Assembly: GCF_041886205.1 (NCBI RefSeq)
Contig: NZ_CP169029.1
Length of the DNA: 64,000 nucleotides
Reading direction: 5' to 3' (one strand)
From: Escherichia coli
GTDB lineage: Bacteria; Pseudomonadota; Gammaproteobacteria; Enterobacterales; Enterobacteriaceae
Made by a program: the position numbers and the translations under genes. Below are positions 35,442 to 62,821 of this stretch, piece by piece. The notes below the pieces were generated by a model. That model saw only the letters and a list, made by a program, of their open reading frames with translations, was not told the origin of the DNA and did not search any database. The stretch's first letter is position 1. Every line of letters starts with the position of its first letter.

Positions 35442-35569
35442 GAATCAATTCCTCTTTCTGCTTATTAATAATGGCTTGTCTGTTACTGCACCAGTACCGT
35501 TTTAACAGGTGCACCCGACCCTAGTACTGCTCGCATATCCGGCGTATCCGGGGGGTGAATCTTTCGGCA

Positions 35570-37693
35570 TCAGGCGTCATCCGGTGCGGGATCGTCGAGG
35601 CTGCCACAGTTCCAGTTAATCAACTGGCGCAGTCACCGTTCACCTGCTCGACTCACCCTGCCAGAGTGAATGTGCGTGCCGTTGAGAAAGATTGCTGCCG
35701 TCCTTCGTCAGCACCAGCCTTGCCTCACCACAGCAGAGCTCCAGATGCCACAGGCGAGATAAACTCGCGGTCTGCCCGTGTGTCAGTCCTTCATTCGTCT
35801 TCTACCACCGGTGAAAGGCGGCGTGATTCCCCACATTGACGTCTGTAGCCCAGCCCGACCCTGAACCAGTGATCCGAAGCAGCCCTGCCTGTGAGGACTG
35901 CAACAGACGCCACCGAGGTGTGGTCGTAATGCCGCCTACCGTCGTCTGGTACGCCCACCGTCAGCGCACGAACGAGTCGCCACCGTTTCCACTCTGAACA
36001 GAACCCACGTTGATGATCTGGTTACCGCCCACCGTCTCCACACTGGTTCATCCCCCACTCGTCTGTATCTGATTAACGCCAATGTTCTGGATCTGGTTAT
36101 TGGTACCGGCGATCGCCTGGTTGTTGCCAATGGTCTCGGCATGGTTGTTTATCACATCCGTGGTGCGGTTATTCAGCACCTCAGGTGTTCATCTGTCTTC
36201 TGCGCGTGGATGTAGACCTGTTCTTTCCCTGTCGCATCGTCAAACTTCAGTTCATTAAACCCGCTGCCCGTATACGTTTTCGAGCGGATGGTCATCTGCG
36301 TCTTCGTTCCGGCAGGCTGCCGGGTGTGCGGTTTTCCTGGTGGTAGGTACGCCCCATAATGATCGGCTGGTCCGGATCGCCGTTGAGGAAGTCCACAATC
36401 ACCTCCTGACCCACACGCGGTATCGCCAGGTGGCCAAAACCGGTGCCTGCCCACGCCTGTGCCACACGGATCCAGCACGAACTGTCTTGGTCTGCCGGGT
36501 TATAACGGTCCCAGTTGAACTTCACCCGCACGCGACCATGTTCGTCGCAGAAGATTTCCTCGCCTGCCGGTCCTGTCACGACAGCGCTCTGCGGGCCGTC
36601 AACCAGCGGTTTCAGCAACGGCTGTGGTCGCCATGTTCTGTCTGCCGGGATCACCGCAAAATGGTTATCCAGCGCCGTCCCCGCTCCCTGCCGTCCTGGC
36701 ACCGCCTGTGGCTGTTCGCCGTGCAGTTCACTTGCCACCACCTGCCATTCCCGGTTCAGGTTCGCCTGCGGATGCCCCGTCAGCACAATTCGCCGTCCCG
36801 GCCATATCTCCGGCGAGCGGCTTGTTCCCCGCGCGGTTTCTGCGTTGTTGCGCCAGCCGTCCATCTGCCAGCGGGCAAAGTTCTGCCCGTGGGCACTCTC
36901 GAAACGTCCGGGGTAGTCATACACTTCATACTGCGTGCGCTGGTAGTCCTGGTGCTGGCCTTCCTGTTCAAAACGTCCGGCCCAGCCGGGTCGCTTAAAG
37001 GTGTAGTCTTTGTGTTCACCACGGAAGAAGGGCGGATTTGTGCGCTGTAGCGGAACTGGCTGATGCAGAGGGTGCTCACCTCGGTACGGGTGTTCGGATT
37101 CCAGGGATTTCAAAAGATTCGGGCAGATAACGCGACTGTGTCGCACAGCACCAGGCTCTGGTCGGTACTTTTGTAAGCATGCTCCTCATAAAAGAAGATG
37201 CCTTCCTCCGCCGCCATCCGGCACAGGAAATCGTAATCAGTCTCACCGTACTGGACACAAAACTCACGGGAAGGATGCGGCTCGCTGAACAGCGGACTCC
37301 ATTCGGTCACCCCGTTTTCCTGCAACATCGTGCCGAGGATGCTTTCGATGTCCTCGTTCTGGAAGATACGGAAGTTCTGGCGCAGACCGGCACGCCACAG
37401 CGGCGGGTGCACCTTCATGCTGTACAGCATCTGGTTTTTGTCGTTCTCCCCCAGTTCAAACCAGGTCACCACACCTTCACCCGGCGCTGTACGTCATCGC
37501 CCTGCCATACCGTCAGGTAGGCCATTTTGTCCAGCACCTGCGCAAATTCAAGGGAGAGAAACTGCTGGCTGACCAGAGAGAGATCGAGGGAAAAAAGCGA
37601 AGAGAGTGACTGGTTCAGATGAAAGGAAACCACCGCAAACGCATCCGGTGGCAGGCCGTCCACTTCCAGTGTGAAACGTAATCCGGTTGACAT
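35570..37693 (-). pseudogene. vgrG: vgrG (T6SS spike protein), split across at least 5 frames; 3' boundary approximate
   Basis: N-terminus MSTGLRFTLEVDGLPPDAFAVVSFHLNQSLSSLFSLDLSLVS at 37693; gp27/gp5-like fragments continue in ORFs 37110..37472, 36292..37146, 36173..36478, 35936..36142. Confidence 0.75.
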
Positions 37694-37857
37694 AGCAACC
37701 TCTGGGGTTAGGAAAAACAGACAGTTCGCTGTTAAAGCGGCTGTGACAGTACAGTGTTACGCTTGCGTTCAGGCACGCTACCGCCGAGTTTTCCGGCAGT
37801 CGCCATCTCCCTTGCTAGTACCCTAACTGACAACCTTTTTTTTATGGTGTAATACAA

Positions 37858-37890
37858 AAACAGCATCCGGCCTGATAGCCGGATGCTGTT
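37858..37890 (-). terminator. Rho-independent terminator downstream of hcp
   Basis: On the minus strand, hairpin CAGCATCCGGC-tatcag-GCCGGATGCTG followed by TTTTTGT, 9 bp after the hcp stop. Confidence 0.55.
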
Positions 37891-37898
37891 GGCTTAAC

Positions 37899-38425
37899 TT
37901 ATGCTTCCAGCGGTGCGCGCCAGTCGTCGGCACCGGAGGTGCCAGATTTGACGTGTTCCCATTCAATTTTCGCGGTAGGCCAGTGAAACTTCGAGCAACT
38001 GGGTGAACTCGCGTTTCGCCGGGTCCTGGCAATGCGGCATATGCAGTTCTCATATCGCCAATCGTCGAATCAGTCAGGCGGGGAGCGAGATAGTGCTCCT
38101 GTTTGCCTTCCACAGAGGTACGCCACCAGTGAAGTTCAGCGGTTGGGCAGCATTTCGCCGGAGGCCAGTGCGTTGTACATCAGCGGAACCGCTTTGTTCA
38201 GCGCCACGGTAAAAATGAAAGGCTTGTGAGCGCACGCTGACCCGCAGGCTGACCGGACTGAGGATCGGTCCGCACAGATAACGTTATGCAGGAATTCCTG
38301 CACCAGCATCTCCGTCTTCGTGCCCCTGCACATAGATGTTGCCGACAGAATCAGCGGTAAATGCACCTGCAGTAATATTTCCCTGGGTCTGACCAGTGAT
38401 GGAAGATATAACACGGTGTTGGCAT
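37899..38425 (-). pseudogene. hcp: hcp (T6SS inner-tube protein), frameshifted
   Basis: Start codon at 38425 encodes MPTPCYI...; internal ...HKPFIFTVALNKAVPLMYNALASGE...; C-terminus ...SGADDWRAPLEA* ending at 37899; the length (527 bp) is not a multiple of 3 and the frame changes at least twice. Confidence 0.8.
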
Positions 38426-39135
38426 TTGTAAACTCCTTGTTAACGTGGTTAATTACTACTTACAATGACCTGCCGTTAATCCCAGACAGGCAGATGCAGC
38501 TCACTTCACGGAACCGCATCATTTTTCAGTATTTTTTACATACAAACCGAGCTAGAATTTACGGTTGTCGTAAAAACTATTTTTAAAATCATTACATAAC
38601 TCTCATTCAGCAAATAACTTAATAATATATATCTGGATAGCCATACCCAACTGTTCAAAGTCCGTATTGCCTCCATAAAATGGCCAACAGCGCGAACCAA
38701 CTGAAAATAAATATTGTATTTATCCTTTCTGAATTATCATTTTGATAATTTTTGAAGATATTCCTTAAAAATACCCACTTAATCAATCACAGTAAACACA
38801 TGTATAAATAAGCAATCATTAGATTAGCTCATGTTTAATGAAATTATTATATACTTCAATAAGTTACATAAAAAATCTATATTTAAATTATTGCCATAAT
38901 ACACCTGACGCGAATTGCACAGGTTCACACAATCTATTTAACGCTTGCAGAATACCCCTCTTTACCATCGATAAAAAGTCCTTTTCTTATTTATTTTGAA
39001 GCGTAAAATGCGGGGTGATGAAGGAGCTGGTGATTTTATTTTCACCGCCATTAGGGCGGCATTGCCGATATTTTTTTGCGGTACAAATATGCCGTGTTCA
39101 TGGCCTGTACGAGATAACATGACGGATTACTTTTA

Positions 39136-39647
39136 TGAGCAAAAAATTTGAAGGCAGCGTCGCGCCTCGCGAGCGTATTAACATATCGTATGTCCCAAAA
39201 ACAGATGGCCAGACGGCTGAAGCGGAACTTCCGCTTAACATGCTCGTTGTCGGCGATACCGGAAATACGCAGGAAAACATCCCCACTGGATGAACGTCAG
39301 GCAGTTTCCGTTAACAAGCACAATTTCGGTGCAGTGATGGCTGAAGCAGCCATTGGCCTCAATTTTACTGTCCCCGCCACGCCTGAAGGGAAGCACAACA
39401 GACGATGAACTGAATGTGGCGCTGAATATCAAATCACTGGAAGCTGACTCTTTCACCAGATAGCGTGGCCCGGCAGGTTCCGGGAAGCGAGTAGTAATCG
39501 CTGGAACTGCGTGAAGCACTGACTGCACTGAAGGGGCTCGGCTGGGTAAACCTTCCGGCATTCCGTACCCAGCTCCAGGCATTGCTGGAAAATGAAGAGT
39601 CCCGCGAGCAGTTGCTCAAAGAAATCGGTCTGGTGAGCAATAAATAA
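39136..39647 (+). pseudogene. tssB: tssB (T6SS sheath small subunit, VipA-like), frameshifted with in-frame stops
   Basis: MSKKFEGSVAPRERINISYVPKTDGQTAEAELPLNMLVVGDTGNTQENIP then frame loss; continuation LDERQAVSVNKHNFGAVMAEAAIGLNFTVPATPEG in another frame; TAG-TAA inside the expected coding sequence. Confidence 0.8.
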
Positions 39648-39682
39648 CCACCACGATTCCATTAAACAGGGTTATCCAGGAC

Positions 39683-41461
39683 ATGACGGCACACAAAAAT
39701 ATCTCCGGGACATACCACCTCTCTGTTGCAGACATTCTGCAGGTGCTTTACCAGGTATGTTTCAGCCCGTCCGTTGAAATCAACCAGGACTGGTGTGGCT
39801 GCGCTGATTACAACACTGGATCGCCGTATCAGTGATCTATTGGATGAGATTATCCATTTTTGTGAGTTTCAGCAGAGCGCGTCGCACTGGCAGCGCGTAC
39901 TTCACTGATGGCGAAAGGCCGGTTCCAGAAACACAGCTAAAACAGAAGGATTTTCAGTATGTCTTTACAGGAAGAGGAACTCTGTTCCCAGTCATGCCGG
40001 GCAGCCTGGAGCAGGCATCGTCGCTGCTTGATCAAATCATGGCACAGACCCGTATTCAGGCCCGGTTCGGAAGGTTATGACGTTGCCCGCCAGGGTGTGA
40101 CAGCCTTTATTGCCAGCATCCTGCAATCCACTGCATCTGCCGAACCGGTCAATAAACTGGCCGTGGACAGCATGATTGCAGATATTGATGAACGCATCAG
40201 CCGCCAGATGGATGTCATCATCCAGGGCGCGCCTGCCTTTCAGCAGGTCGAATCGTTCTGGCGCTCACTGAAAACCATGGTGGATCGCGTTGATTTCCGT
40301 GAAAACATCAAGGTCAACGTGCTTCATGTCACCAAAGCAGGGAACTTCTGGAAGACTTTGAGTTTGCGCCAGAAATTATTCAGTCCGGATTTGATCAAGC
40401 ACGTTTATTCGTCCGGATTCGGACAGTTTGGCGGTGAACCCATCGCTGCCGTGCTGGGCGCTTATGAGTTCAAAAATACCGCGCCTGACATGAGACTGTC
40501 GGCAAGACGCCAGTGCCGTGGGCGCAACGGCGCACGCACCGTTCCTGTCCTCCGTTTCCCCGGCGGAGTTTATGGGGCTGAACTCGTGGACCGAACTGCC
40601 TAATATCAAAGATCTTTATGCCATCTTTGAAGGTCCGGCCTACACCAAATGGCGCGCCCTGGCGTGACTCGGAAGATTCGCGCTGGATTCAGGGCTTACG
40701 GCACCCCGTTCTTCCTGCTTCGCCAGCCCTGGTCACCAGCAGATAACCCTGTTAAGAAGCTTTAACTATCACGAAGATGTCAGCCAGAACCACGAAGATT
40801 ATCTGTGGGGTAATACGGCCTGGATGCTGGCATGCAATATCGCAGACAGTTTTGCCGAATACCGCTGGTGTCCAAACATTATCGGCCCGCAAAGCGGCGG
40901 CGCGGTGAAAGATCTGCCGGTGCATCTGTTCGAAACGATGGGGCAGATTCAGGCCAAAATCCCAACCGAGGTGCTGGTCACCGATCGCCGCGAATTTGAA
41001 CTGGCTGAAGAGGGTTTTATCACCCTGACCATGCGTAAAGACTCTGATAATGCAGCCTTTTTCTCTGCAAACTCGGTACAAAAACCTGAAGCACTTTCCG
41101 GGAAAAGATGCAGAAACCAACTATAAGCTGGGTCTGCAGTCTCCCTGATCTCTTCATCATCAACCGGTTAGCGCACTACATCAAGGTGTTGCAGCGTGAA
41201 CATACTGGGGTCATGGAAAGAAAGGAGCGACTTAGAGAGGGCAGCTCAGACACCCTGGATCCGTCAGTATGTTGCCGACCAGGAAAACCCGCCGGACGGA
41301 CGTGCGCAGCCCGCAAACCTCTGCGCGCAGCCAGAGTTGAGGTTATGGATGTGGAAGGCGAACCCGGCTGGTACCAGGTTGCGCTAAGCGTGAGGCCTCA
41401 TTTTAAATTTATGGGGGCAAATTTTGAGCTTTCCCTGGTCGGCCGGTTAGACAGGGAGTAA
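39683..41461 (+). pseudogene. tssC: tssC (T6SS sheath large subunit, VipB-like), split over several frames
   Basis: Fragments in ORFs 39959..40603, 40824..41126 and 41108..41461; C-terminus ...YVADQENPPDG...VEVMDVEGEPGWYQVALSVRPHFKFMGANFELSLVGRLD is VipB-like but distributed over two frames. Confidence 0.75.
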
Positions 41462-41467
41462 CACACC

Positions 41468-41828
41468 ATGAGAGTACCGGATCGGGAAAAGAACCACAGG
41501 TTCTCTTTTTTGAGCGTATGGAAGCCTCTTCGGCCAGAAACCGGGCAGGGAGGCAGTATTCATTCGCTCAGGCAATCCATTCGCCAGAACCTGACGAAAC
41601 ATTCTGAGTACCCGGTCCGGTAGTTGCCGGGGTGCGCCTGAGCTGGGCATTGATGAACCGGAAGGGGCTGAAAACTTCCGCGAATCCATGAGTCGGGCCA
41701 TCGAGCAATGTATAGAACGCTATGAACCCCGGATCTCACACGCTGAAGTGCAGGCAGTGGTTTCATCCGCCTCCAGCCCGCTGGATACGGCTGCTTCATA
41801 TTACAGCCTGGGTGACATTTCAGTCTGA
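41468..41828 (+). pseudogene. tssE: tssE (gp25-like baseplate component), frameshifted
   Basis: MRVPDREKN...SIHSLRQSIRQNL... then stop; continuation ...ESMSRAIEQCIERYEPRISHAEVQ... in another frame. Confidence 0.55.
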
Positions 41829-41894
41829 AACGCATGAGGTGCTTGAATTTGATATGGCACCGAATGCAGCCAGCATTACCGGGTGGACTGACAA

Positions 41895-43701
41895 ATGGAA
41901 TTTGAAGAACGCTATTTCCGGGAAGAACTCGATTACCTGCGCCAGCTGAGCAAGCTGCTCGGCAATGGATCTATCTGGCCCGCTTCCTGGCCGAAAAAGA
42001 TGCGGATCCGGATATCCAGAACGCCTGCTGGAAGGGGTGGGGCGTCTTTCTTAACCGGCAATCTCCGCCAGAAAATTGAGGATGAATTCCCAGAACTGAC
42101 GCACGGGCTCAATCAAAGATGCTATGGCCTGATCACCTGCGTCCGGTTCCTGGCAATGACCCTTGATCTATATACGCCGGATATGGATAAGTCTTCTGTA
42201 CCGGTGTTAATCCCCTCGTAGACTCAGCAGTTGAACATACCAACGCCGGGGAAATCAGAGTTGATGAAGTGCTGCCCTCTGATGCTAAAAAGGAGGAGCC
42301 GCCTCCCCTGTACCTTCAGCCCTCTGCCGGGATATCAGGCTGCTGGCCCGTTCGCCTGGAGCAGATTGACTGCAGTACGACCCGTAATGGTGTTATCATA
42401 CATCACCCTTTCGGTTCGCACCGGAAACGGACTTCCGCACGCTGGATCTGAACAAACTTCGCTTCTGCCGCTCGGCAATGACGACAACTATACCCGTGAC
42501 CAGCTTTATTTATGGTTCTGCGAATACTTGCAGGGTGCCGACCTGACTGTGGGTGAACAGCATATTCGCCTGCCTGAGTTTATGCTAAAAGCTGTCGGTT
42601 TTGAGCCGCAGGACGCCATGCTGGCCCTGGCCTGAAAAACGTCCACAGCGGCTACCGGATCCTTCAGGAGTATTTCCGTTACCCCGATGCGTTTCTCTTT
42701 TTTGATCTTTGTGGTTGTCCGGCTTTGCCTGACGGATTGCAGGCGGAATTCTTTACCCTGCAACTGCGTTTTTCGCGCCCTTTGCCCGTGGACATCCGGC
42801 TGCGCCGCGATTCCCTGCGCCTGTATCGCGCACCTGCCATTAATTTATTTATCCACCATGCAGAAGCCATCACGCTGGACAAACCGGCGGGCAAGACTAT
42901 CCGCTGGTTCCCAGCCGCCATTACCCACAACATTACGATGTATTTTCCGTTAACAGTGTGGTGAGCCAGGTCCAGGATATGTTCAGGAAAAAAGATCTGG
43001 GGCGTCCTGTTTCGACGCAGGCCGCGCGCCAGTGGCCAGCCTTTGAAAGTTTCAGCCATCAGATGGAATACAGCCGGAAGCGGGAAGTGGTGTACTGGCA
43101 ATCACCGGACCAAAACATCCCTGTTCCATCGCGGCTTTGATCATACCCTTGCCTTTATACATGCTGATGGCAGTTATCCGTCAGACGAATCTTCTCGCTC
43201 GAGTAAATGAAGTGGTTTCGGTATCGCTGACCTGTACCAACCGTGAGCTTCCGTCACAAATACGTTCCGGGCGATATCACCGGCACAACCGGTAAAAATG
43301 CGGCTGTTGCTTCATTTCGCAACATTACCCGCCCGACGCAACCACTCTGGCCGGTCATTGACTGGCAGCCTGCACTGGTCCCTGCTCTCCGCCATGAACC
43401 TGAATTATCTGTCATTACTGGATACGGACGCGCTGAAGCAGCTCATCGCCAGTCTTTGATCGCCACGCAATCCATCATCCGCAGACGGCACGGCTGTCAC
43501 AACAAAAGCTGGATGCCATTGAGCGTCTGGAGACCCGCCCCGTTGATCGCCTGTTTACGGGTATTCCCGTCCGGGGACTTGGCCTCCACGCTGTATCTGC
43601 ACCCGGAGCCGTTTGTCTGTGAAGGGAAATGTATCTGCTCGGTACGGTGCTTTCGCATTTTCTGTCGCTGTACGCCAGCGTTAACTCATTCCACATGCTG
43701 A
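41895..43701 (+). pseudogene. tssF: tssF (baseplate component), split across at least 4 frames
   Basis: N-terminal MEFEERYFREELDYLRQLSKLLG; further pieces in ORFs 42231..42635, 42687..42964, 43243..43701. Confidence 0.65.
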
Positions 43702-43729
43702 CCGTTGTGAACACAGAAAGCCAGGAGAC

Positions 43730-44637
43730 ATGGAAATGGACGGAAAGAATCGGGCAGCATCCTCTTATCTGAGTCCGGGAAATCCCCCGGCAGATAAAGA
43801 GCAGAATGATCCGCTGGCACAGGTTTTCCATAATGCCTGCTCTTACAATTTTTTTGCGATGGCGGGCTCGTTGCACCGCCTGGCAAAGGGTGAAAGGGGA
43901 CGCCAGAATTATCCCTGCGTGACGATCCGGCACAGGAAACCCTGCGTTTCAGCGCCGATGCCAGCCTTGCCTTCCCGTGCAGTGATATCAGTGCACTGAA
44001 ACGGGATACGTCAGGGGCATTCAGGATGACCACCACCTTTATGGGGTTACAGGGGAGCCAGTCGCCTCTCCCCGGTTATTACCTCGATCACCTGGCCTGG
44101 AAAGCGGTACATGAACAAAGTCCGGTAGGTGATTTTCTGGATATGTTCAGCCACCGCCTGACCCAGTTTGTCTGGCATATCTGGCGTAAGTACCGCTATC
44201 ACATCAGTTTTCGTAACGGCGGTGTGGATGCGTTCTCGCAGCGCATGTACTCCCTTGTCGGGCTGGGCCACCGCCAGCTTCGCGATAAGCTGGCGATTAA
44301 TCACAGCAAAATGCTGGCGTATTCCGGGATCCTGGCAAATCCGGGATGATCCCCGGAAATAATCTGTGGCCTGGTGTCCCACTGCTTTGATTTGTCAGAA
44401 GTGACGCTGCAAAACTGGCAACGTCGCAAGGTGGATATTGAACCGGATCAGCAAAATAGTCTGGGGAGCTATTCTCTTAAAAATGGCGAAAAACTGGCGG
44501 GAAGATCGGTACTGGGCAACTTTGTTCTGGGTACACGAGTGCCCGATCTCAGCGGAAAATTCCAGCTCAGTATTACCAGCCTGACCCGAAAACAGTTCCT
44601 CTCTTTCTGCCGTCTGGCGAAAACTTCCTGCCACTGA
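43730..44637 (+). pseudogene. tssG: tssG (baseplate component), at least one frameshift
   Basis: ORFs 43730..43999, 44026..44349 and 44374..44637 are consecutive pieces in different frames; position after tssF. Confidence 0.6.
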
Positions 44638-44840
44638 CGATGTTCGTGTCCTTCATCCTGCGCGATCAGCTTGCCTGGGACTTACATCTGGGGCTGGCGC
44701 CGGAGCAGGTGGGCGCAATGCGCCTGGGCGATAACAAAAGTGCGCTGCTGGGCTGGACCAGCTTCCTCGGCACACCGGAAGAACGACCCTCAGTCACCAT
44801 CAGGGTACGGTCGTAAATTATGATAATCACGGAGCAGAAT

Positions 44841-46121
44841 ATGCCGGAAGAGAAACTACAGACGCTTTCATTGCAGGTCATTAACGGCAGTGAGCTGGAA
44901 AGCGGACGGGCGGCGCGCTGTCTGTTCACACAGCAGGGAAATGTCGGCCATGGCCCCGAATGCCACTGGTCGGTACAGGATCGTCAGCAGAGCATTCCGG
45001 CCCAGGCTTTTACCGTTATCCTGCACGATGGCACATTTTGTCTGCGCCCGCAGACGGCACAACTGTGGCTGAATCAGGCAAAAGTCACAGCAACATCAGA
45101 CCTAATACAGTTGCGCCAGGGCGATGAGATCCAGATCGGACGGCTGATGGTGAGGGTTCATCTGAACCGGGGAGATATTCCCCATTACGATGAGGAAATG
45201 GCCACTCCCGAAACCATCGTTACCAATCGCGATATGCTCACGGATACCCTGCTATCAACGGAGGGTACGCCACACTATCCGGGAATGACTCACCGGCACC
45301 AACTTGCAGACACCGTGGTAAACGGTTTTTCTGCCGATCCACTCCAGGCACTTCAGTCCGAAAGCCTGATTACCACGGGCGATCCGCTTTCAGGCATTGC
45401 GGCTGTCCGGCCATCGGCACCGCTGTCCGATCCGGCAAGTAATGGGGGGATCAATACTCCGTTTATGGATCTGCCGCCCATTTATGCCAGCCCCGGCGAT
45501 CGTAATGACGACGTCTCTGCGGCAGAAATGGCGCAACGCCACCTTGCGGTCACCCCCTTACTGCGCGGTCTTGGCGGCTCGCTTACCATGAGCAATTCCG
45601 ACGATGCGGATGATTTTCTGGAGGAGGCCGGACGAACGTTACAGGCCGCAATAAAAGGTCTGCTCGATTTGCAGCAGCAGCGTAACAGCCTCTCAGACAA
45701 ACATTTGCGCCCGCTGGAAGATAACCCGCTGCGCCTGAACATGGATTACGCCACCGCGCTCGACGTAATGTTTGCCGAAGGTAAAAGCCCGGTACATCTG
45801 GCGGCTCCCGCCGCCGTCAGTGAAAGCCTGCGCAATGTCCGCCACCACGAAGAAGCTAACCGGGCAGCGATTGTGGAGTCGCTTCGTGTCCTGCTGGATG
45901 CTTTCTCACCACAAAATCTGCTGCGCCGCTTTGTGCAGTACCGCCGCAGCCATGAACTGCGCCAGCCGCTGGATGATGCCGGAGCATGGCAAATGTACAG
46001 CCATTATTACGAAGAACTGGCCTCCGATCGCCAGCAGGGGTTTGAGATGCTGTTTAACGAGGTCTACGCCCAGGTCTATGACCGGGTGCTTCGTGAAAAA
46101 CAGCGGGAGCCGGAAGCATGA
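44841..46121 (+). CDS. tagH: T6SS FHA-domain protein TagH/Fha, reading frame intact
   Basis: Continuous ~427-aa ORF; N-terminal FHA-like segment (...LSLQVINGSELESGRAARCLF...LRPQTAQLWLNQAKVTA...GDEIQIGRLMVRV); position between tssG and tssJ; stop overlaps the tssJ start. Confidence 0.7.
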   Translation: MPEEKLQTLSLQVINGSELESGRAARCLFTQQGNVGHGPECHWSVQDRQQSIPAQAFTVILHDGTFCLRPQTAQLWLNQAKVTATSDLIQLRQGDEIQIGRLMVRVHLNRGDIPHYDEEMATPETIVTNRDMLTDTLLSTEGTPHYPGMTHRHQLADTVVNGFSADPLQALQSESLITTGDPLSGIAAVRPSAPLSDPASNGGINTPFMDLPPIYASPGDRNDDVSAAEMAQRHLAVTPLLRGLGGSLTMSNSDDADDFLEEAGRTLQAAIKGLLDLQQQRNSLSDKHLRPLEDNPLRLNMDYATALDVMFAEGKSPVHLAAPAAVSESLRNVRHHEEANRAAIVESLRVLLDAFSPQNLLRRFVQYRRSHELRQPLDDAGAWQMYSHYYEELASDRQQGFEMLFNEVYAQVYDRVLREKQREPEA

Positions 46122-46642
46122 ACAGGAAGGCGTTTCTGGCCTGCGTGCTGATGTGCGTCATATTAACCGGCTGCGAAACGGCGAAAAAAATCAGTGAGGT
46201 GATCAAAAACCCGGATATCCAGGTCGGGAGCCTGAAGGAGCAACCTTCGGAAATAACCGTCACCCTGCTGACCGAACCGGACACGCATACCAATGCGGAA
46301 GGTGAATCAGCCGCCGTGGATGTGCAACTGGTGTACCTGACTGACGACTCAAAATTGCTGGCAGCCGACTATGACCAGATAGCCAGTACGCCGCTACCGG
46401 ATGTGCTGGGTAAAAACTATATCGACCACCAGGATTTCAACCTGTTGCCGGACACCATCAAAACCCTGCCGCCGGTAAAGCTGGATGAGAAAACGCAGTT
46501 TATTGGTGTCGTGGCCGATTTCTCCGATGACCAGGCCACTGAATGGGAACAAATCGAGACGGTGGAAGGAACCGGCCACCATTACCGCCTGCTGGTGCAT
46601 GTACGTCAAAGCAGCATCGAAATGAAAAAAGAGGATGAATAA
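46118..46642 (+). CDS. tssJ: T6SS outer-membrane lipoprotein TssJ, reading frame intact
   Basis: 174 aa; lipoprotein signal MNRKAFLACVLMCVILTGC (lipobox LTGC); ATGA overlap with tagH; followed immediately by tssK. Confidence 0.8.
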   Translation: MNRKAFLACVLMCVILTGCETAKKISEVIKNPDIQVGSLKEQPSEITVTLLTEPDTHTNAEGESAAVDVQLVYLTDDSKLLAADYDQIASTPLPDVLGKNYIDHQDFNLLPDTIKTLPPVKLDEKTQFIGVVADFSDDQATEWEQIETVEGTGHHYRLLVHVRQSSIEMKKEDE

Positions 46643-46644
46643 TT

Positions 46645-47977
46645 ATGGCAACCACCCGCAACAAGGTGATGTGGCAGGAAGGGATGCTGATGCGCCCACA
46701 CCATTTCCAGCAACAGCAGCGTTACAACGACTACCTGGATAACCAGCGTTTCCGGGCCATGAATGATTTATCCTGGGGATTTACCGAACTCACCCTCAAC
46801 AATGAACTGCTGGCGCAGGGTAAGATCATGATTGACAGCGCGTCAGGCACACTGCCCGACGGCACCGTCTTTTCTATCCCCGACCAGGACGCACTGCCCG
46901 ATCCGCTGCACCCGCAAAATTTTCCGGACGAAAGAAGCCGCAATATCTACCTCGCTCTGCCGGTCGCCAGTGATGTGAGAAATGAAATCAGCGACGGACG
47001 GCGAATCGGGCGTTACCGGCTGAATTATGCCGATGTCCGGGATTTGCATTCAGAAGAAGGTGACGCGCGAACATTGACGCTGGGTCAACTGACGCCGCGC
47101 ATTATGAGCGGTGCAGAAGATATGAGCGCCTATATTACGCTCCCGCTTTGCCGTATCAGCGATCGCCATGCCGATGGCTCCCTGACGTTGGATGACGATT
47201 TTATCCCCTCCTGCCAGAATATTCAGGTCAGTAAGAAACTGCGTGTTTATCTCAAAGAGGTACAGGGGGCCATTGGCGGACGGGCAAGCGATCTGGCAAA
47301 CCGTATTGGCTCTCCGGCGCAGAGCGGCATCGCGGATGTGGCGGAATTTATGATGTTGCAGTTACTTAACCGTAACCAGACCCGGTTTACCCATCGCGCC
47401 CGCCGATCCCAGCTCCACCCGGAAGATTTCTACCTTGATCTTGCTGGGTTGCTGGGTGAACTGATGACCTTTACCGAGCCGTCGCGCCTGCCCTGCCCGC
47501 TTGATGTGTATGATCATCATGATCTGACCAAAACATTTAAAACACTGTTACCGGAAGTCAAACGGGCGCTACATACCGTACTGTCGCCAAGAGCGGTCAA
47601 TCTGCCGCTGCATCTGCGTGACGGTATCTGGCAGGCCGATATCCATGACACAGAACTGCTGCAATCTGCCACCTTTGTGCTGGCCGTGGCGGCAAACGTG
47701 CCGGTCGATCAGATCCAGCGTCAGTTTATCCAGCAGTCGAAAATTTCCTCGCCGGAAAAAATCCGCAATATGGTCAGTGTGCAGATCCCCGGTATTCCAT
47801 TGCGTGCCACTTATGGCGGCTCCCCGCCAGCTTCCTTATCATTCCGGGTTCAGCTATTTCGAACTCGACAAGAGCGGACAGGCCTGGACAGAAATGGCTG
47901 CCGCCGGGGCCGTTGCACTGCATGTATCCGGCAGTTTCCCGGATCTGAACATGCAACTGTGGGCGATAAGAGGGTAA
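46645..47977 (+). pseudogene. tssK: tssK (baseplate component), single frameshift near 47820
   Basis: Track ORF 46645..48075 is TssK-like until ...VQIPGIPLRATYGG, then becomes low-complexity; the plausible C-terminus ...LPYHSGFSYFELDKSGQAWTEMAAAGAVALHVSGSFPDLNMQLWAIRG* is in the frame of ORF 47618..47977. Confidence 0.75.
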
Positions 47978-47981
47978 GACG

Positions 47982-48742
47982 ATGGATGAGGGGTCACTGT
48001 CTCTGCCACCATTTACCGGATACGACGAAAAAAGCCAGCGCAACTACCATCTCGCGCTTCGTGGCAACAGCCTGAATCCGATGATCGACGCGGCCACGCC
48101 GCTACTCGGTATGGTAATGCGCCTTTCAACCATGAACAGCCAGACGATGCCGGAGCATCTTTTTGCTCAGGTGGTGACGGATGTTCAGGCCGTGGAGCAA
48201 CTGCTTCAGGAGCAGGGCTACGAACCGGGCGTGATTATCTCGTTTCGCTACATCCCCTGCACGTTTATTGATGAAGCTGGCGCTCGGTAACGGCTGGTCA
48301 AACAAGAACGAGTGGATCAAGCAGTCATTGCTGGTCCATTTCCACAACGAAGCCTGGGGTGGAGAGAAAGTTTTCATCCTGCTGGAGCGCCTGATCCGTG
48401 AACCCAAACGTTACCAGGATCTGCTGGAATTTCTCTGGATCTGTTTTTCTCTGGGATTTCGCGGGCGCTACAAAGTGGCAGCACAGGATCAGGGGGAATT
48501 TGAGCAGATCTACCGCCGTCTGTACCACGTTCTGCATAAACTGCGCGGCGATGCCCCTTTCCCGCTGTTACACCAGGACAAAAACCCAGGGCGGGCGTTA
48601 TCAGCTCATCAGTCGCCTGACTGTTAAACATATTTTTTGTGGTGGCGTTGTCGTGCTGGCGTTGTTTTACCTGTTCTATCTGTTGCGGCTGGACAGCCAG
48701 ACGCAGGACATCCTGCACCAGCTAAACAAATTACTTCGATAA
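47982..48742 (+). pseudogene. tssL: tssL (DotU-like membrane-complex component), about two frameshifts
   Basis: Three consecutive ORF pieces (47982..48290, 48268..48627, 48398..48742) with ...SLLVHFHNEAWGGEKVFILLERL... and a C-terminal transmembrane helix VVVLALFYLFYLL. Confidence 0.62.
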
Positions 48743-48750
48743 GGACGTTT

Positions 48751-51521
48751 ATGATCCAGATTGATCTTCCCACGCTGGTAAAACGGCTGAACCTGTTCTC
48801 CCGCCAGGCGCTGGAGATGGCCGCCTCTGAATGTATGAGTCAGCAGGCAGCGGAAATTACCGTCAGCCATGTGCTCATTCAGATGCTCACCATGCCACGC
48901 AGTGACCTGCGGGTTATTACCCCGCCAGGGCGATATTGGCATGGAAGAAGTTGCGCCAGGCGCTGACGGTAGAGAACTACACGACCGCCCGTTCTGCGGA
49001 CAGCTACCCGGCGTTTTCCCCGATGCTGGTTGAGTGGCTGAAAGAGGGCTGGCTGCTGGCGTCGGCTGAGATGCAGCACAGCGAACTGCGCGGCGGCGTG
49101 TTGCTGCTGGCCCTGCTGCATTCGCCGCTGCGTTATATACCGCCTGCTGCCGCCCGGCTGACCGGCATGAACCGTGACCGTCTGCAAAGGACTTTGTGCA
49201 ATGGACACAGGAGTCGGCGGAATCAGTCGTGCCGGATGCAGACGGTAAAGGCGCAGGCACACATGACGGACGCCTCTGACACCCTGCTTGCCCGCTATGC
49301 CAAAAACATGACCGCAGACGCCCGTAACGGCAGGCTTGACCCGGTACTGTGCCGCGACCACGAAATCGACCTGATGATCGACATTCTCTGCCGCCGCCGT
49401 AAAAACAACCCGGTGGTGGTGGGCGAAGCGGGCGTGGGCAAAAGCGCACTGATTGAAGGGCTGGCGCTGCGCATCGTGGCAGGCCAGGTGCCGGACAAGC
49501 TGAAAAACACCGATATCATGACCCTGACCTGGGCGCATTGCAGGCCGGGGCGTCGGTGAAGGGTGAATTCGAAAAACGTTTCAAAGGGCTGATGGCGGAG
49601 GTCATTTCCTCCCCGGTGCCGGTCATTCTGTTTATCGACGAAGCACATACCCTGATTGGCGCGGGCAACCAGCAGGGCGGGCTGGATATCTCCAACCTGC
49701 TCAAACCGGCGCTGGCGCGCGGCGAGCTGAAAACCATCGCCGCCACCACCTGGAGCGGTACAAAAAATACTTCGAAAAAGATGCCGCCCTGTCGCGCCGC
49801 TTCCAGTTGGTGAAGGTCAGCGAACCCAACGCTGCCGAAGCCACCATTATTCTGCGCGGTCTGTCGGCGGTCTATGAACAGTCTCACGGCGTGCTGATTG
49901 ATGATGACGCCTTGCAGGCCGCTGCGACATTAAGCGAGCGTTATCTCTCCGGGCGTCAGTTACCGGACAAAGCGATTGATGTGCTGGATACCGCCTGCGC
50001 CCGTGTGGCCATCAACCTGTCGTCGCCGCCGAAGCAAATCTCGGCGCTGACCACTCTGAGCCACCAGCAGGAGGCGGGAAATTCGCCAGCTTGAGCGCGA
50101 GCTTCGCATCGGACTGCGTACCGACACATCACGGATGACCGAGGTGCTGGTGCAGTATGATGAAACGCTGACGGCGCTGGATGAACTGGAAGCGGCCTGG
50201 CACCAGCAGCAGACGCTGGTCCGGGAGATTATTGCGCTGCGCCAGCAGTTACTGGGCGTGGCAGAGGACGATGCGGCGCCGTTGCCGGACCGCAGATACC
50301 GTGGAGGATACGCAGCCAGAGTCAGAGTCAGAACAGGATAATACCGAGTGCCGTACCGGCTGGATGAGGCCGACAGAGAACAGCCGGAAGAGACCGCTGA
50401 AACAGTTTCCCCGGTACAACGTCTGGCGCCATCTCACTGCCGAACTGGACGCCCTGCATAACGACCGGTTGCTGGTTTCCCCGCACGTCGATAAAAAACA
50501 GATTGCGGCGGTGATTGCCGAATGGACCGGCGTGCCGCTTAACCGCCTGTCGCAGAATGAAATGTCGGTCATCACCGACCTGCCAAAATGGCTCGGCGAC
50601 ACCATCAAGGGCCAGGACCTGGCGATTGCCAGCCTGCACAAACACCTGCTGACCGCACGCGCCGACCTGCGCCGTCCGGGACGCCCGCTGGGCGCGTTCC
50701 TGCTGGCTGGCCCCAGCGGCGTGGGTAAAACTGAAACCGTCCTGCAACTGGCAGAGCTGCTCTACGGCGGTCGCCAGTACCTGACCACCATCAATATGTC
50801 CGAGTTCCAGGAGAAACATACCGTCTCGCGACTGATTGGTTCGCCTCCGGGCTACGTTGGCTACGGTGAAGGCGGCGTACTGACCGAAGCGATTCGCCAG
50901 AAACCCTACTCGGTAGTACTGCTCGATGAAGTGGAAAAAGCGCACCCGGATGTGCTCAACCTGTTCTACCAGGCGTTCGATAAGGGCGAAATGGCAGACG
51001 GTGAAGGCCGCCTGATTGACTGCAAAAATATCGTCTTCTTCCTGACGTCCAACCTCGGCTACCAGGTAATAGTCGAGCATGCCGATGACCCGGAAACCAT
51101 GCAGGAAGTACTGTATCCAGTTGTGCTGGCCGACTTCTTCAAACCTGCCCTGCTGGCGCGTATGGAAGTGGTGCCGTACCTGCCGCTGTCGAAAGAGACG
51201 CTCGCCACCATCATTGCCGGGAAACTGGCCCGCCTGGATAACGTGCTGCGCAGCCGCTTTGGCGCGGAGGTGATTATAGAACCGGAAGTGACGGACGAAA
51301 TCATGAGCCGCGTCACCCGCGCGGAAAACGGCGCGAGGATGCTGGAATCGGTCATCGACGGCAAGATGCCGCCGCTGCTCTCCCTGCTGCTGTTGCAGAA
51401 AATGGCGGCGAATACGGCGGTTGCCCGGATTCGGTTGTCGGCAGTGGACGGCGCATTTACGGCAGACGTGGAAGATGCTCAGAACGACGAGTCCGTCACA
51501 AAGGATGAAACGGTTTTATGA
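48751..51521 (+). pseudogene. clpV: clpV/tssH (T6SS AAA+ ATPase), about five frameshifts
   Basis: N-terminus MIQIDLPTLVKRLNLFSRQALEMAASECMSQQ...; Walker A of the first ATPase domain ([18 protein letters not shown]) and second (FLLAGPSGVGKTETV) lie in different frames; pieces in 6 ORFs. Confidence 0.8.
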
Positions 51522-52261
51522 GCAGGTTGCGCGTTTTCCGGCAGACAGGATGGTTTATCGCGGGCCTGATGACGGGCTTACCCGCCACTGCCGCGCCCGC
51601 AGAAGCATCGTCAATGGCCGGTGTGGCGGTTGCCGTCGCCACCACGACCCCGCCGGATGCGACAGCCACGTTACAGGCCATGCAGTCCTGTCGGCGGGAG
51701 TCCGCGGCGCTGGAGCGGCTTGACTGCTATGACCGCCTGCTGGCACCGCTGTCCCCGTCAGGGTTTGACGGGGCGCTGGTCAAAGCCGGTTTTGTGGGCG
51801 AAGCCTGGACCCGCGCCACAGAACAGGAAAAACACCGCCAGGGCAACACCACAGAGCTGCTGGTGACGCAGGTGCCGGGGGAGCGCCCGACGGTGGTGAT
51901 AACCACCCCGGCTATCGGTCATGTTCCGCCACGCCCGGTGCTGATGTTCAGTTGCGTGGACAATATCACCCGGATGCAGGTGGCGCTGATGCACCCTCTG
52001 GATGTCCATGATATCGCCGTCACTCTGAATGCCGACAACCGGGCATTGCGCAGCCACTGGTTTGTGCGCGAGAACGGCACCCTGCTGGAGTCCAGCCGGG
52101 GGTTATCCGGGATTGATGAAATTAAGCAACTGTTCGGCGCAAAAACGCTGACGGTGGATACCGGCGCAGACAATGCCGCCGGAAAGCTGACCTTTAACAT
52201 TGACGGGCTGGCAAGGGCGATTGCTCCCCTGCGCGATGCCTGCCACTGGGCGGGAGAGTAA
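51518..52261 (+). CDS. T6SS-associated periplasmic protein, VasI-like by position; reading frame intact
   Basis: 247 aa with N-terminal signal-like segment (...GWFIAGLMTGLPATAAPA...); sits between clpV and tssA as VasI does in V. cholerae-type clusters; ATGA overlap with clpV. Confidence 0.5.
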   Translation: MSRLRVFRQTGWFIAGLMTGLPATAAPAEASSMAGVAVAVATTTPPDATATLQAMQSCRRESAALERLDCYDRLLAPLSPSGFDGALVKAGFVGEAWTRATEQEKHRQGNTTELLVTQVPGERPTVVITTPAIGHVPPRPVLMFSCVDNITRMQVALMHPLDVHDIAVTLNADNRALRSHWFVRENGTLLESSRGLSGIDEIKQLFGAKTLTVDTGADNAAGKLTFNIDGLARAIAPLRDACHWAGE

Positions 52262-52265
52262 AAAT

Positions 52266-53679
52266 ATGGCAATGGACTTACGCGATCCGAATGTCTGGAT
52301 ATCGCACCTGCTGGAAAACCTGCCGGAAGAGAAACTGGCATCGGCGCTGAAAGATGACAACCCGAACTGGGAGTATATCGACGGCGAAATCGTCAAGCTG
52401 GGATCGCTGGCCCACAGTCAACTGGATATCCCGGAACTCCAGCGCCGGGGGCTGGTCATTCTGGCTTCGGAGAGTAAGGATTTTCGTCTGCTGGCGCATC
52501 TGCTGAGAACCCTGCAACACGCCGGTGATCCTCACTCCCGCATTGCGCCTGCTGGCGCTGTATGTGGAGCATTACTGGGCGGTGGCTGCGCCGCAGAATA
52601 TGGCGCATAAAAAACGCTTTGCCAGCCAGGTCATTAAACGCTTTGAAACAGGTATTGAAGTTTTTTCACAGAACGCCGCCACAGCGCAGCGCGATGCGCT
52701 GTCAGGGGAACTGGCAAAACTGGCGCAATGCTGGCAGTCACATAACGCCCCGGAACTGGCACAGGCTACTGATGATCTTTTTGCCCCGTACCAGCGTGCG
52801 TTTAATCGTGCGGCACCGGTTCCTGTCCCCACTCCGGCGGCCTCCGGTAGTTCACCACAGACCACCGCCACGTCTGAAAGCGGCGTGACGCAACCCAGTG
52901 CTCCGGCTCCCCAAATCGTCATCGACAGTCACGACGACAAAGCCTGGCGCGACACGCTGTTAAAAGTGGCGGCCATTTTATGTGAACGCCAGCCGGATTC
53001 ACCGCAGGGCTACCGTCTGCGCCGCCATGCGCTTTGGCAGAACATCACCAGTACGCCCCAGGCGGAAAGCGATGGCCGTACTCCACTGGCTGCGGTCTCC
53101 GCCGATATGGTGGCAGATTACCATGCTCAGCTCGGTAGTGCCGATATGGCGCTGTGGCAGCAGGTGGAGAAAAGCGTACTGCTGGCTCCTTACTGGCTGG
53201 ATGGTCACTGCCTTTCTGCACAGACGGCGCTGCGTCTGGGTTACAAACAGGTGGCAGACGCCATCCGCGATGAGGTCATCCGCTTCCTTGAGCGTCTGCC
53301 CCAGCTTACCGGGCTGCTGTTTAATGACCACACACCGTTTATCAGTGAGCAGACGAAACAATGGCTGGCAGCTTCGCCCGACGCCAAAGTTGCACCGGTT
53401 GCGCAAATCGGTGAGGAATCGAAGGCAGCCAGAGCCTGTTTTGCTGAGCAGGGTCTGGAGGCGGCGCTGCGATATCTGGACATGCTACCCGAAGGCGATC
53501 CCCGCGATCAGTTTCACCGCCAGTACCTTGCCGCACAGTTGACGGAAGAGGCGGGGCTGGTACAGCTTGCGCAGCAGCAGTACCGGATGTTGTTCAGGAT
53601 GGGATTGCAGATGATGGTGGCAGACTGGGAGCCGTCCCTGCTTGAGCAGCTAGAACAAAAATTCACGGCAGAACAATAA
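52266..53679 (+). pseudogene. tssA: tssA (ImpA-N-domain protein), one frameshift near 52540
   Basis: MAMDLRDPNVWISHLLENLPEEKLASALKDDNPNWEYIDGEIVKLGSLAHSQLDIPELQRRG... continues in a second frame (ORF 52525..53679). Confidence 0.65.
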
Positions 53680-53697
53680 AAGAGAACAGGAGTTTTT

Positions 53698-56600
53698 GTG
53701 TTCAGATTACCAACACCCCGACTACTCAGCGGACTCAAATCAGCCCTGCGACCGGCGATGCCCCGGTTTAAAGTCTCTGCTTTCTGGCTGCTGATACTGG
53801 CGTGGATTTTTCTGCTGGTGTGGATCTGGTGGAAAGGCCCGACGTGGACGCTGTATGAAGAACAGTGGCTCTAAACCACTGGCGAACCGCTGGCTGGCAA
53901 CGGCGGCGTGGGGGATTATTGCCCTGATGTGGCTTACCGTCCGGGTGATGAAGCGCCTGCAACAGCTTGAAAAACAGCAAAAACAACAGCGCGAGGAAGC
54001 CGTTCGATCCGCTCAGTGTGGAACTGAACGCCCAGCAGCGTTACCTCGACCGCTGGCTGCTGCGCCTGCAACGCCATCTCGACAACCGCCGTTTCCTGTG
54101 GCAATTGCCGTGGTATATGGTCATCGGCCCGGCGGGCAGTGGCAAAACGACACTGCTGCGCGAGGGGTTTCCGTCAGACATTATTTATGCCCCGGAGGGC
54201 TCGCGCGGCGCAGAACAACGCCTGTACCTTACGCCCCATGTCGGTAAACAGGCGGTGATCTTTGATATCGACGGCACACTCTGCGCTCCCGCTGATGCGG
54301 ATATCCTGCATCGCCGTCTGTGGGAACATACCCTCGGCTGGCTGAAGGAAAAGCGCGCGCGCCAGCCCGCTGAACGGGATTATTCTGACACTCGATTTAC
54401 CCGATCTGCTGACCGCAGACAAGCGCCGCCGTGAGTATCTGCTACAGACGCTGCGCAGCCGCTTGCAGGATATACGCCAGCATCTTCACTGCCAGCTACC
54501 GGTTTACGTGGTACTGACCCGGCTTGATTTATTGCAGGGTTTTGCCGCCCTGTTCCAGTCCCTGAACAGACAGGATCGTGATGCGATTCTGGGTGTCACG
54601 TTCACCCGCCGTGCCCATGAAAATGATGACTGGCGAACAGAGTTGAATGCTTTCTGGCAGACATGGGTGGATCGAATGAATCTGGCGTTGCCGGATCTGA
54701 TGGTCGCTCAGACTCACACCCGCGCGTCTTTATTCAGTTTTTCCCGCCAGATGCAGGGAAGCCGTGAACCCCTGGTGTCACTGCTTGAAGGTCTGCTTGA
54801 CGGCGAAAATATGAACGTGATGCTGCGTGGTGTCTATCTCACCTCGTCACTGCAACGCGGCCAGATGGATGACATCTTTACCCAGTCCGCCGCCCGCCAG
54901 TACCGGCTGGGCAATAACCCACTGGCGTCCTGGCCCCTGGTGGACACCGCGCCTTATTTCACCCGCAGCCTGTTCCCGCAGGCATTACTCGCAGAGCCTA
55001 ATCTGGCAACGGAGAGCCGTGACTGGCTGATGCGTTCCCGTCGCCGCCTGACGGTTTTCTCTGCCACAGGCGGCGTGGCGGCACTGCTGCTCATCACCGG
55101 CTGGCATCACTATCACAACGGTAACTATCAGTCCGGCATCACCGTGCTTAAGCAGGCCAAAGCCTTTATGGACGTGCCGCCTCCGCAGGGGAAAGACGAC
55201 TACGGCAACCTGCAACTGCCGCTGCTGAACCCGGTACGCGATGCCACACTGGCCTATGGCGACTGGGGCGACCGCAGCCGTCTGGCCGATATGGGACTGT
55301 ACCAGGGACGACGTATCGGGCCTTATGTGGAACAGACCTATCTGCAACTACTAGAGCAGCGTTACCTGCCCTCGCTGTTTAACGGGCTGGTCAAAGCGAT
55401 GAACGCCGCGCCGCCGGAGAGTGAGGAAAAACTCGCCGTGCTGCGCGTGATGCGAATGCTGGAGGACAAAAGCGGACGCAATAATGAGGTGGTGAAGCAG
55501 TATATGGCAAAACGCTGGAGCGAAAAAGTTCCACGGCCAGCGTGATATCCAGGCACAACTGATGTCCCATCTTGACTACGCGCTGGCTCATACTGACTGG
55601 CATGCAGAGCGTCAGGCGGGCGACGGTGACGCCATCAGCCGCTGGATGCCATATGACAAGCCCGTGGTATCAGCACAGAAAGAACTGAGCAAACTGCCTG
55701 TCTACCAGCGGGTTTACCAGAGCCTGAAAACGCGGGCGCTGGGCGTTCTTACCTGCTGACCTCAATCTGCGTGACCAGGTAGGGCCAACCTTTGACCAGG
55801 TCTTTACATCTGCCGATGACAACAAACTGGTTGTTCCACAGTTTCTTACCCGTTACGGCCTGCAAAGCTATTTTGTAAAACAGCGCGATGAACTGGTTGA
55901 ACTGACGGCAATGGATTCCTGGGTACTCAACCTCACCCGCAGTGTGAAATACAGTGACGCCGACCGCGCGGAAATCCAGCGCCAGTTGACCGAGCAGTAT
56001 ATCAGCGACTACACCGCTACCTGGCGAGCCGGGATGTGACAATCTGAATATCCGCAATTTTGAGTCCATTGGACAACTGACCGGGGCGCTGGAGCAGGTT
56101 ATCAGCGGCGACCAGCCTTTGCAGCGGGCGCTGACTGTGTTGCGTGACAACACACAGCCAGGCGTCTTTTCTGAAAAACTTTCTGCCAAAGAACGGGATG
56201 AGGCTCTGGCAGAACCGGACTACCAGTTGCTCACCCGCCTCGGGCATGAATTTGCCCCGGAAAACAGTACTCTGGCAGTACAGAAAGACAAAGAAAGCAC
56301 GATGCAGGCCGTGTATCAGCAACTCACCGAGTTGCACCGCTATCTGCTGGCAATTCAGAACGCGCCTGTACCAGGGAAATCGGCGCTGAAAGCCGTGCAG
56401 TTGCGGCTTGATCAGAACAGCAGCGATCCGATATTCGCCACCCGCCAGATGGCAAAGACACTGCCTGCTCCGCTCAACCGCTGGGTTGGCAGACTGGCTG
56501 ACCAGGCCTGGCATGTGGTGATGGTGGAGGCCGTTCACTATATGGAAGTGGACTGGCGCGACAGCGTGGTGAAACCGTTTAACGAGCAACTGGCAAATAA

Positions 56601-57228: not shown

Positions 57229-57239
57229 GGAGGCAGGGA

Positions 57240-58593: not shown

Positions 58594-58616
58594 TTATTTA
58601 ATTAAAGGAGATTATC

Positions 58617-59099: not shown

Positions 59100-59142
59100 C
59101 TTACTGTAATAACATAATAAATTACTATTGCGGAGAGATAAA

Positions 59143-60039: not shown

Positions 60040-60067
60040 CACTCCACCCGTGATATGAGGATTAACC

Positions 60068-62757: not shown

Positions 62758-62821
62758 AGCGGTCATTTATGTCAGACTTGTCATTTTACAGTTCGATTCA
62801 ATTACAGGAAGTCTACCAGAG

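Follow-up and report, generated by a model that had tools for sequence, protein, structure and literature searches.

Open tagH and tssJ frames in an Escherichia coli aspV T6SS island probably lie in a patch missed by a noise-like overlay of small changes

Introduction

Why do two adjacent genes of a T6SS cluster have uninterrupted frames when most genes of the cluster are broken? The question is raised by tagH and tssJ in a 64,000-nucleotide stretch of an Escherichia coli chromosome (assembly GCF_041886205.1, contig NZ_CP169029.1), which was analyzed at its full length and is called the window here, all positions being counted from its first letter. An initial, sequence-only reading took the cluster to be decayed and proposed that the two genes, as well as a VasI-like ORF, had either been retained by chance or been co-opted for a T6SS-independent role. 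In a working T6SS, TssJ serves as the anchor of the TssJ–TssL–TssM membrane complex; TagH, an accessory FHA protein, would act in phosphothreonine-dependent or -independent control of assembly.

Materials and Methods

Changes were called from pairwise BLAST alignments of the window to one main reference, the island of E. coli FDAARGOS_1059 (locus L001), and to ten other reference islands. Chance expectations were simulated for the right half of the island, where indels are sparser (47 in 17.5 kb), under a homogeneous null and under nulls in which the observed indel clusters were kept, the indels being merged within 50, 150, or 300 bp. Conservation of TssJ was assessed in 116 homologues with at least 76% identity.

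Results and Discussion

Island identity and gene content

The window carries an E. coli-type chromosome with the order betB–betA, IS1, tRNA-Thr, proA ... fadE, ivy, yafV, island, tRNA-Asp, dnaQ, rnhA. The island occupies about 34 kb between yafV and tRNA-Asp and contains, in order, an ISAs1-family copy, ydcD, Rhs, vgrG, hcp, tssB, tssC, tssE, tssF, tssG, tagH, tssJ, tssK, tssL, tssH, vasI, tssA, tssM, vasL, hcp, ykfM, and yafT. Nested within it is a zone dense in small changes (Table 1), which covers the ISAs1/ISEc1 copy, ydcD, Rhs, vgrG, hcp, tssB–tssM, vasL, hcp, ykfM, and yafT. The same gene order from hcp to hcp, adjoining tRNA-Asp, is found in FDAARGOS_1059 and in the 37-kb island (z0243–z0275) of EHEC O157:H7 EDL933, and the identity between 44 and 49 kb is 99.7% to FDAARGOS_1059 and 98.1% to the O157:H7 genomes. 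Judged by gene order and similarity, the cluster is recognizable as the common E. coli aspV T6SS island.

The EDL933 island is intact, functional, and repressed by H-NS (PMC5363993). The window island resembles this system in that its TagH and VasI are identical to common alleles and the tagH/tssJ overlap is the same, and differs from it in that all genes but tagH, tssJ, and vasI have frameshifts or stops, and TssJ has three replacements at conserved residues. A functional T6SS requires the core tssA–tssM, hcp, and vgrG to be all intact, and in the window indels or stops are found in hcp, tssB, C, E, F, G, K, L, H, A, M, vasL, and vgrG.

The identity of the three intact genes is clear. The tagH gene lies between tssG and tssJ; its open reading frame is longer, from 44820, and the start given in Table 1 was mapped from the annotated start of the orthologue. 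TagH matches the Pfam domains FHA (PF00498, 22.3 bits, cut-off 20.7) and T6SS_FHA_C (PF20232, 142 bits, profile positions 1–179 of 180). There are zero nucleotide differences from tagH of FDAARGOS_1059, and the protein is identical to WP_001113725.1 over 426/426 aa. No other TagH allele is as common: this exact protein appears in 35,197 blocks of public assemblies, inside T6SS clusters in all places shown. TssJ matches T6SS-SciN (PF12790, 73 bits) and has the lipobox L-T-G-C, with Cys19 conserved in 116/116 homologues. VasI, encoded between tssH and tssA, matches PF11319 at full length (181 bits) and is likewise a very common allele (33,766 blocks). As predicted from their sequences, tagH encodes the FHA scaffold and tssJ the outer-membrane lipoprotein of the common aspV T6SS island; they are ordinary genes of this island and are coupled in translation.

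Table 1. Features of the aspV island discussed in the text (window coordinates).
Feature	Position	Strand	Basis
Zone dense in small indels and substitutions	28772..61153	.	First and last indels vs references; nested within the aspV island
tssG remnant, broken	43736..44816	+	Indels and nonsense vs reference
Indel-free stretch, 3204 bases	44605..47808	.	Pairwise alignment to the main reference; flanking indels 44604, 47809
tagH, T6SS-associated FHA-domain protein, 426 aa, full length	44841..46121	+	ORF, Pfam, reference match
ATGA overlap, tagH stop / tssJ start	46118..46121	+	Read directly; annotated likewise in FDAARGOS_1059
tssJ, T6SS outer-membrane lipoprotein, 174 aa, frame intact, private N57H, Y134D, K144E	46118..46642	+	ORF, Pfam
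tssK, +1 frameshift at 47809	46645..47977	+	Alignment and Pfam
vasI, 247 aa, intact	51518..52261	+	Pfam VasI, common allele
tRNA-Asp (aspV), right island border	61817..61893	-	ARAGORN and synteny with reference

The gene structure proposed by the sequence-only reading is confirmed by the ORFs and by direct reading: tssJ and tagH are uninterrupted and overlap by ATGA, the VasI-like ORF is open, and both neighbors of the tagH–tssJ pair, tssG and tssK, are broken. In tssG, a deletion at 43866 is compensated by an insertion at 43869, and the disrupting lesions are 1-bp deletions at 43893 and 44604 and a CGA>TGA nonsense change at 44347. In tssK, an additional A at 47809 (codon 389) leads to a 476-aa ORF with an out-of-frame tail running to 48075, and the Pfam profile T6SS_VasE is matched at positions 1–387 of 429.

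Distribution of indels and the clean patch

Between 36 and 61.6 kb, 163 indels were identified relative to the main reference, and their density is very uneven, 15.1 per kb up to ~43.9 kb vs 2.5 per kb beyond this point. Strong support exists for one change-point only, at ~43.9 kb (ΔBIC 113), and introducing a separate clean segment at 43.9–47.8 kb gains just 3.5 in ΔBIC. The largest gap between indels, from 44604 to 47809, is 3205 bp long; other gaps are 1.0–1.4 kb, and one of them (1414 bp, from 51121 to 52535) holds vasI.

The probability of a largest gap of at least 3205 bp is 0.004 under the homogeneous null and 0.03, 0.13, and 0.38 with clusters merged within 50, 150, and 300 bp, respectively. 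At least three intact genes out of 14 are expected with the probability 0.16 under the homogeneous null and up to 0.89 with clusters kept, and an intact gene of at least 1281 bp, with the probability 0.09 and up to 0.63, respectively. Hence, the three intact genes are unremarkable, and the 3.2-kb gap is out of the ordinary only to a moderate degree, which varies with the null; the initial description of an intact 1.3-kb frame as mildly unexpected was a fair one.

The borders of the indel-free stretch do not coincide with those of the tagH–tssJ pair. The stretch starts 236 bp upstream of tagH, within broken tssG. Besides tagH and tssJ, it takes in 212 bp at the 3′ end of tssG and codons 1–388 of tssK, also broken (1164 bp, or 87% of the gene). 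It holds only five substitutions, four of them in tssJ, and the 1164-bp part of tssK is entirely unchanged. The patch has the shape of a region, not of a gene.

Spectrum of the changes

Compared with the main reference, the 36–61.6-kb region has 139 insertions, 24 deletions, and 253 substitutions, some of the substitutions being due to the natural divergence of vgrG. The insertion:deletion ratio is 5.8:1, the mean indel size is ~1.2 nt, and no indel exceeds 4 bp: there are 123 insertions of 1 bp, ten of 2 bp, five of 3 bp, and one of 4 bp. The 123 single-base insertions are uniform in composition (C 37, T 29, G 29, A 28) and copy the adjacent base in 40% of cases, while random bases placed at random sites would do so in 43%; since duplication of the neighbor is at the random level, they are not products of slippage. 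Deletions behave differently, 10 out of 20 being located in homopolymers of at least four bases vs 6.4% expected. Changes private to the window against all 11 reference islands comprise 73 insertions, 14 deletions, and 66 substitutions, and thus indels are about as frequent as substitutions. Among private island substitutions, AT→GC changes outnumber GC→AT ones (38 vs 11, p = 4e-6), and the Ts:Tv ratio of substitutions is ~1.8.

For the Rhs/vgrG segment, the best reference match is only 83.8%, and the differences are rich in third codon positions, which points to a largely naturally divergent allele. Noise and natural divergence are inseparable there, and therefore the segment is unusable for noise measurement.

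In real bacterial pseudogenes, the insertion:deletion ratio is ~0.76, and deletions average ~19 nt (Danneels et al., 2018, PMC6054270), while bacterial mutation is AT-biased (PMC2936535). Bacterial pseudogene decay resembles the pattern in the window in having many frame-disrupting lesions and a random-level fraction of non-synonymous changes, and differs from it in the insertion excess, the 4-nt maximum, the random inserted bases, and the AT→GC bias seen here. A natural array of pseudogenes would have deletion-biased indels of broad size, templated insertions, a GC→AT bias, and lesions common to related strains, and none of these features was found. The premise of a decayed T6SS cluster therefore holds to the extent that the genes, as read, are frameshifted or stopped; natural decay as the cause is doubtful, the spectrum being unlike that of bacterial pseudogenes.

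The pattern also resembles residual consensus errors of assemblies from single-molecule long reads, or unpolished regions, with which it has in common arbitrary one-base insertions, deletions in homopolymers, clustering, sharp borders unrelated to genes, and changes private to one record. It differs from them in that substitutions are as frequent as insertions and rich in transitions. Moreover, long-read errors limited to one island need a special cause, e.g., the lack of short-read coverage there, and the long-read origin of the record is itself a supposition.

Confinement to the island and absence from other genomes

Outside the island, the window is clean. Positions 14010–27919 of the backbone are 99.94% identical to GCA_020145595.1, and positions 61811–64000, 99.8% identical; strain wlxctx60 matches positions 1–3184 at 100% identity; and the alignment of a second accessory segment, 3952–5457, is free of gaps. 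In the 22 kb of backbone at 5457–27878, the comparison with strain A34 reveals 383 substitutions and only one indel pair, a compensated one. Genome-wide sequencing error was rejected on these grounds, both the backbone and the second accessory segment being clean. Nor was it favored that all changes came from a uniform random simulation, given the excess of deletions in homopolymers and of transitions among the substitutions.

The private changes are absent from ~2,000–2,800 complete E. coli genomes bearing the island, the best of which differs from the window at every private site tested. No exact protein was found in a 153-billion-gene index for the ORF produced by the TssK frameshift, the TssJ allele, or the TssH-fragment ORF; an indel-bearing 36-mer had no exact match in species-representative genomes, and a 29-mer across the tssK +1 insertion had no match in metagenomes in a search run without the wild-type 29-mer as a positive control. 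The comparison with other strains suggested by the initial reading thus finds the decayed state in no other genome.

The same island is naturally eroded in other E. coli, where, similarly, some parts persist beside aspV or yafV while others are lost. There, erosion proceeds via insertions of IS1, ISAs1, and IS3 and kilobase-size deletions, and the surviving genes are clean, as in the remnants at loci L014, L018, L020, L026 (with a truncated TagH of 218 aa), and L035; in contrast, the window island has no large deletions, just ~160 tiny indels. Deletions of various kinds produced these remnants, and a stand-alone tagH–tssJ module does not recur among them.

Origin of the changes

We consider it probable that tagH and tssJ are ordinary genes of the aspV island located in a patch that was missed by a noise-like, non-natural overlay, with neither selection nor co-option involved. 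Under this explanation, the common aspV T6SS island would have been overlaid, from ~28.8 to 61.2 kb, with patchy small changes, mainly random 1-bp insertions plus substitutions. The source may be read or assembly errors that were left uncorrected in the island only, or artificial alteration, and the frames of tagH, tssJ, and most of tssK would be open since the 3.2-kb patch escaped the overlay. The origin of the overlay is most likely non-biological.

Several observations count against noise. The changes stop inside the island borders, a pattern also compatible with a dead island under relaxed selection; homopolymers hold half of the 1-bp deletions, as natural slippage would give; the Ts:Tv ratio is not that of uniform substitution; and the 3.2-kb gap is improbable under the homogeneous model. 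As all four differences in vasI are synonymous, some of the private differences are probably real inherited polymorphism.

The alternative that best withstands the data is that the island is a real, heavily pseudogenized relic, in which tagH, tssJ, and vasI remained open by chance or due to a recent recombination tract of ~3–4 kb from a strain with an intact cluster. The damage is indeed restricted to a dispensable island, and the substitutions in the broken T6SS genes look neutral: the non-synonymous fraction is 0.73 (N:S 74:27), compared to 0.76 expected at random, and these substitutions appear to be unselected. Besides, tagH and tssK in its 5′ part do not differ from a common allele, as expected of a fresh import, and chance alone yields three or more intact genes (P = 0.16–0.89). 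However, the insertion excess, the non-templated inserted bases, and the absence of indels above 4 bp disagree with the larger, deletion-biased indels of pseudogenes (PMC6054270); indels and substitutions occur at about the same frequency; the AT→GC bias is opposite to the known one (PMC2936535); and the lesions are not common to any relative. The full length and synteny of the island are retained despite more than 160 indels, whereas natural variants lose whole blocks via IS elements and deletions. As for the recombination tract, the four private tssJ substitutions fall inside the supposedly fresh segment. A real relic is therefore unlikely, albeit far from negligible.

Selection on the open frames

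The proposal that tagH–tssJ and vasI have been kept by purifying selection and co-opted for a T6SS-independent role after the loss of the apparatus draws on the open frames of 1281, 525, and 744 bp amid broken neighbors, on the conserved ATGA coupling, and on the fact that there are no insertions at all in 43.9–47.8 kb. The substitutions in these genes were compared with this proposal.

The private tssJ substitutions are at positions 46285, 46286, 46517, and 46547, within 262 bp; one of them is synonymous and three are non-synonymous, so that dN/dS is ~1, from four changes. All three replacements affect residues that are not free to vary in the subfamily: Asn57 and Tyr134 are invariant in 116/116 homologues, and position 144 is Lys in 115 of them and Arg in one, only 43% of the alignment columns being that conserved. 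TssJ1 from P. aeruginosa (PDB 3ZHN) and Lip from Serratia (PDB 4A1R) likewise have Asn at position 57 and a basic amino acid at 144. Hence, subfamily-invariant residues have not been retained in the window TssJ. Loss of conserved residues and dN/dS near 1 had both been named initially as outcomes that would refute retention, and tssJ shows both. For tagH, with neither non-synonymous nor synonymous changes, dN/dS is undefined, and, given zero differences from the reference, the gene carries no signal of selection.

A further point in favor of co-option comes from vasI, where four synonymous and no non-synonymous differences from the main reference were found (p ~0.003 under neutrality, on four changes only). 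The pooled N:S ratio of tagH, tssJ, and vasI, 3:5, differs from that of the broken genes (Fisher p = 0.046), this result resting entirely on vasI. Two out of three private changes in vasI are GC→AT transitions, and the vasI changes resemble normal polymorphism from the time of a working cluster rather than traces of selection after decay.

Other data also speak against co-option. The clean stretch extends into broken tssG and far into broken tssK; a simple consensus scan of 43.5–47.0 kb found no sigma-70-like promoter site, while 1.9 would be expected; and the stop-filled upstream genes of the operon would be expected to lower expression. TssM, the known partner of TssJ, and other core genes are broken, and no recurrent stand-alone tagH–tssJ remnant is seen in the other strains. 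Neither dN/dS, on these few counts, nor the simple promoter scan, both proposed initially as checks, lends clear support to retention. Of the two possibilities raised at the outset, chance stands and is better described as regional heterogeneity of the indel process, whereas co-option does not, given dN/dS of ~1 in tssJ and a patch that is not gene-shaped. Retention by purifying selection with a new role is very improbable, and we are highly confident that neither selective retention nor co-option accounts for the open frames.

Least probable of all is the possibility that the lesions are real products of a localized insertion- and AT→GC-biased process that riddled the T6SS/Rhs island and spared the chromosome, with tagH, tssJ, and the 5′ part of tssK protected or recently restored and possibly still used; were it true, such an island-restricted, insertion-biased mutational process would be remarkable.

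The overlay explanation has little biological consequence, as tagH, tssJ, and vasI are textbook components of a well-known island and nothing points to a new role for them. In practice, the matter is one of data quality: claims built on a "decayed T6SS island," including that of selective retention, should be held pending verification of the sequence.

Three minor observations concern the surroundings of the cluster. The FadE and YafV alleles of the backbone are so common that they do not point to a source lineage. The locus with the backbone closest to the window (L017) carries a different island at this place. A hypothetical gene at 59143–60039 encodes a 298-aa protein, whose look-up matched only genes cut by contig ends.

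Indel and substitution overlay in the island

Relative to reference islands, mainly that of strain FDAARGOS_1059, the aspV T6SS island of the window carries tiny indels and substitutions along its whole length, and the chromosome on either side is clean. Insertions outnumber deletions by a factor of 5.8, the inserted bases are random, all indels are at most 4 bp long, and the substitutions are AT->GC biased; this spectrum is unnatural. Up to approximately 43.9 kb there are 15 indels per kb; beyond that point the density falls abruptly to 2.5 per kb.

The divergence of the ISAs1/ISEc1-family element from its other copies climbs step by step, with five substitutions in the first 670 bp and about one change per 10 bp reached by 29.2-29.4 kb. 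Given this gradual rise, the onset of the noise is itself gradual and is located within the IS element instead of at the edge of the island.

The best match of the Rhs/vgrG segment among complete E. coli genomes is 83.8%, none being higher, and 417 of the 738 differences in Rhs fall in third codon positions. Based on these two features of the sequence, the segment looks like a truly divergent Rhs/VgrG allele beneath the frameshifts.

In a 12-bp span at the tssH 3' end, three substitutions private to the window change CTG-CCG-CCG to CCG-CCG-CTG (LPP to PPL); they look like one minor shuffle within a short repeat and not like three separate events.

In several independent short-read assemblies (loci L037-L041), contigs end at one common position close to the 3' end of a gene encoding a 304-aa hypothetical protein, suggesting that a repeat begins there.

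Coordinates of the features in the window and in loci from other E. coli genomes

Feature	Sequence	Coordinates
IS1 copy	window	3185-3952
Low-GC segment	window	3952-5457
Backbone indel pair	window	9362-9364
Short repeats	window	19470-19784, 20368-20461, 23052-23184
ISAs1/ISEc1-family element	window	28104-29392
Indel/substitution overlay	window	28772-61153
Rhs/vgrG segment	window	29400-37400
tssH 3' end	window	51365-51376
Shared contig-break point	window	about 60035-60040
Shared contig-break point	L037-L041	about 10894
T6SS remnant at yafV-aspV	L017 (GCA_020145595.1)	13911-20177
Island deletion variant	L026 (GCA_017081385.1)	16761-17417
Island deletion variant	L035	15569-20768

The island site in other strains

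In the strain with the closest backbone (L017, 99.94%), the yafV-aspV site holds a different, short T6SS remnant, comprising a TssF fragment, TssG, and an ImpA_N protein; thus, the island and the backbone have differing histories. Deletion variants of the island occur naturally: in L026, TagH is reduced to a 218-aa C-terminal fragment and TssJ is intact, and L035 retains tssG-tagH-tssJ with an IS3-family element upstream of them.

Backbone and second accessory segment

An IS1 copy directly joins the betA region to a low-GC (31%) segment that adjoins tRNA-Thr and whose proteins are elsewhere annotated as "ABC-three component system"; compared with the K-12 map, the window presumably lacks tens of kb lying between betA and thrW. 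Relative to E. coli strain A34, the backbone has a single indel pair, one base lost and one gained 2 bp apart, directly past the phoE ORF. Short repeats of 85-96% identity near rayT, yafL, and lpcA are probably REP elements.
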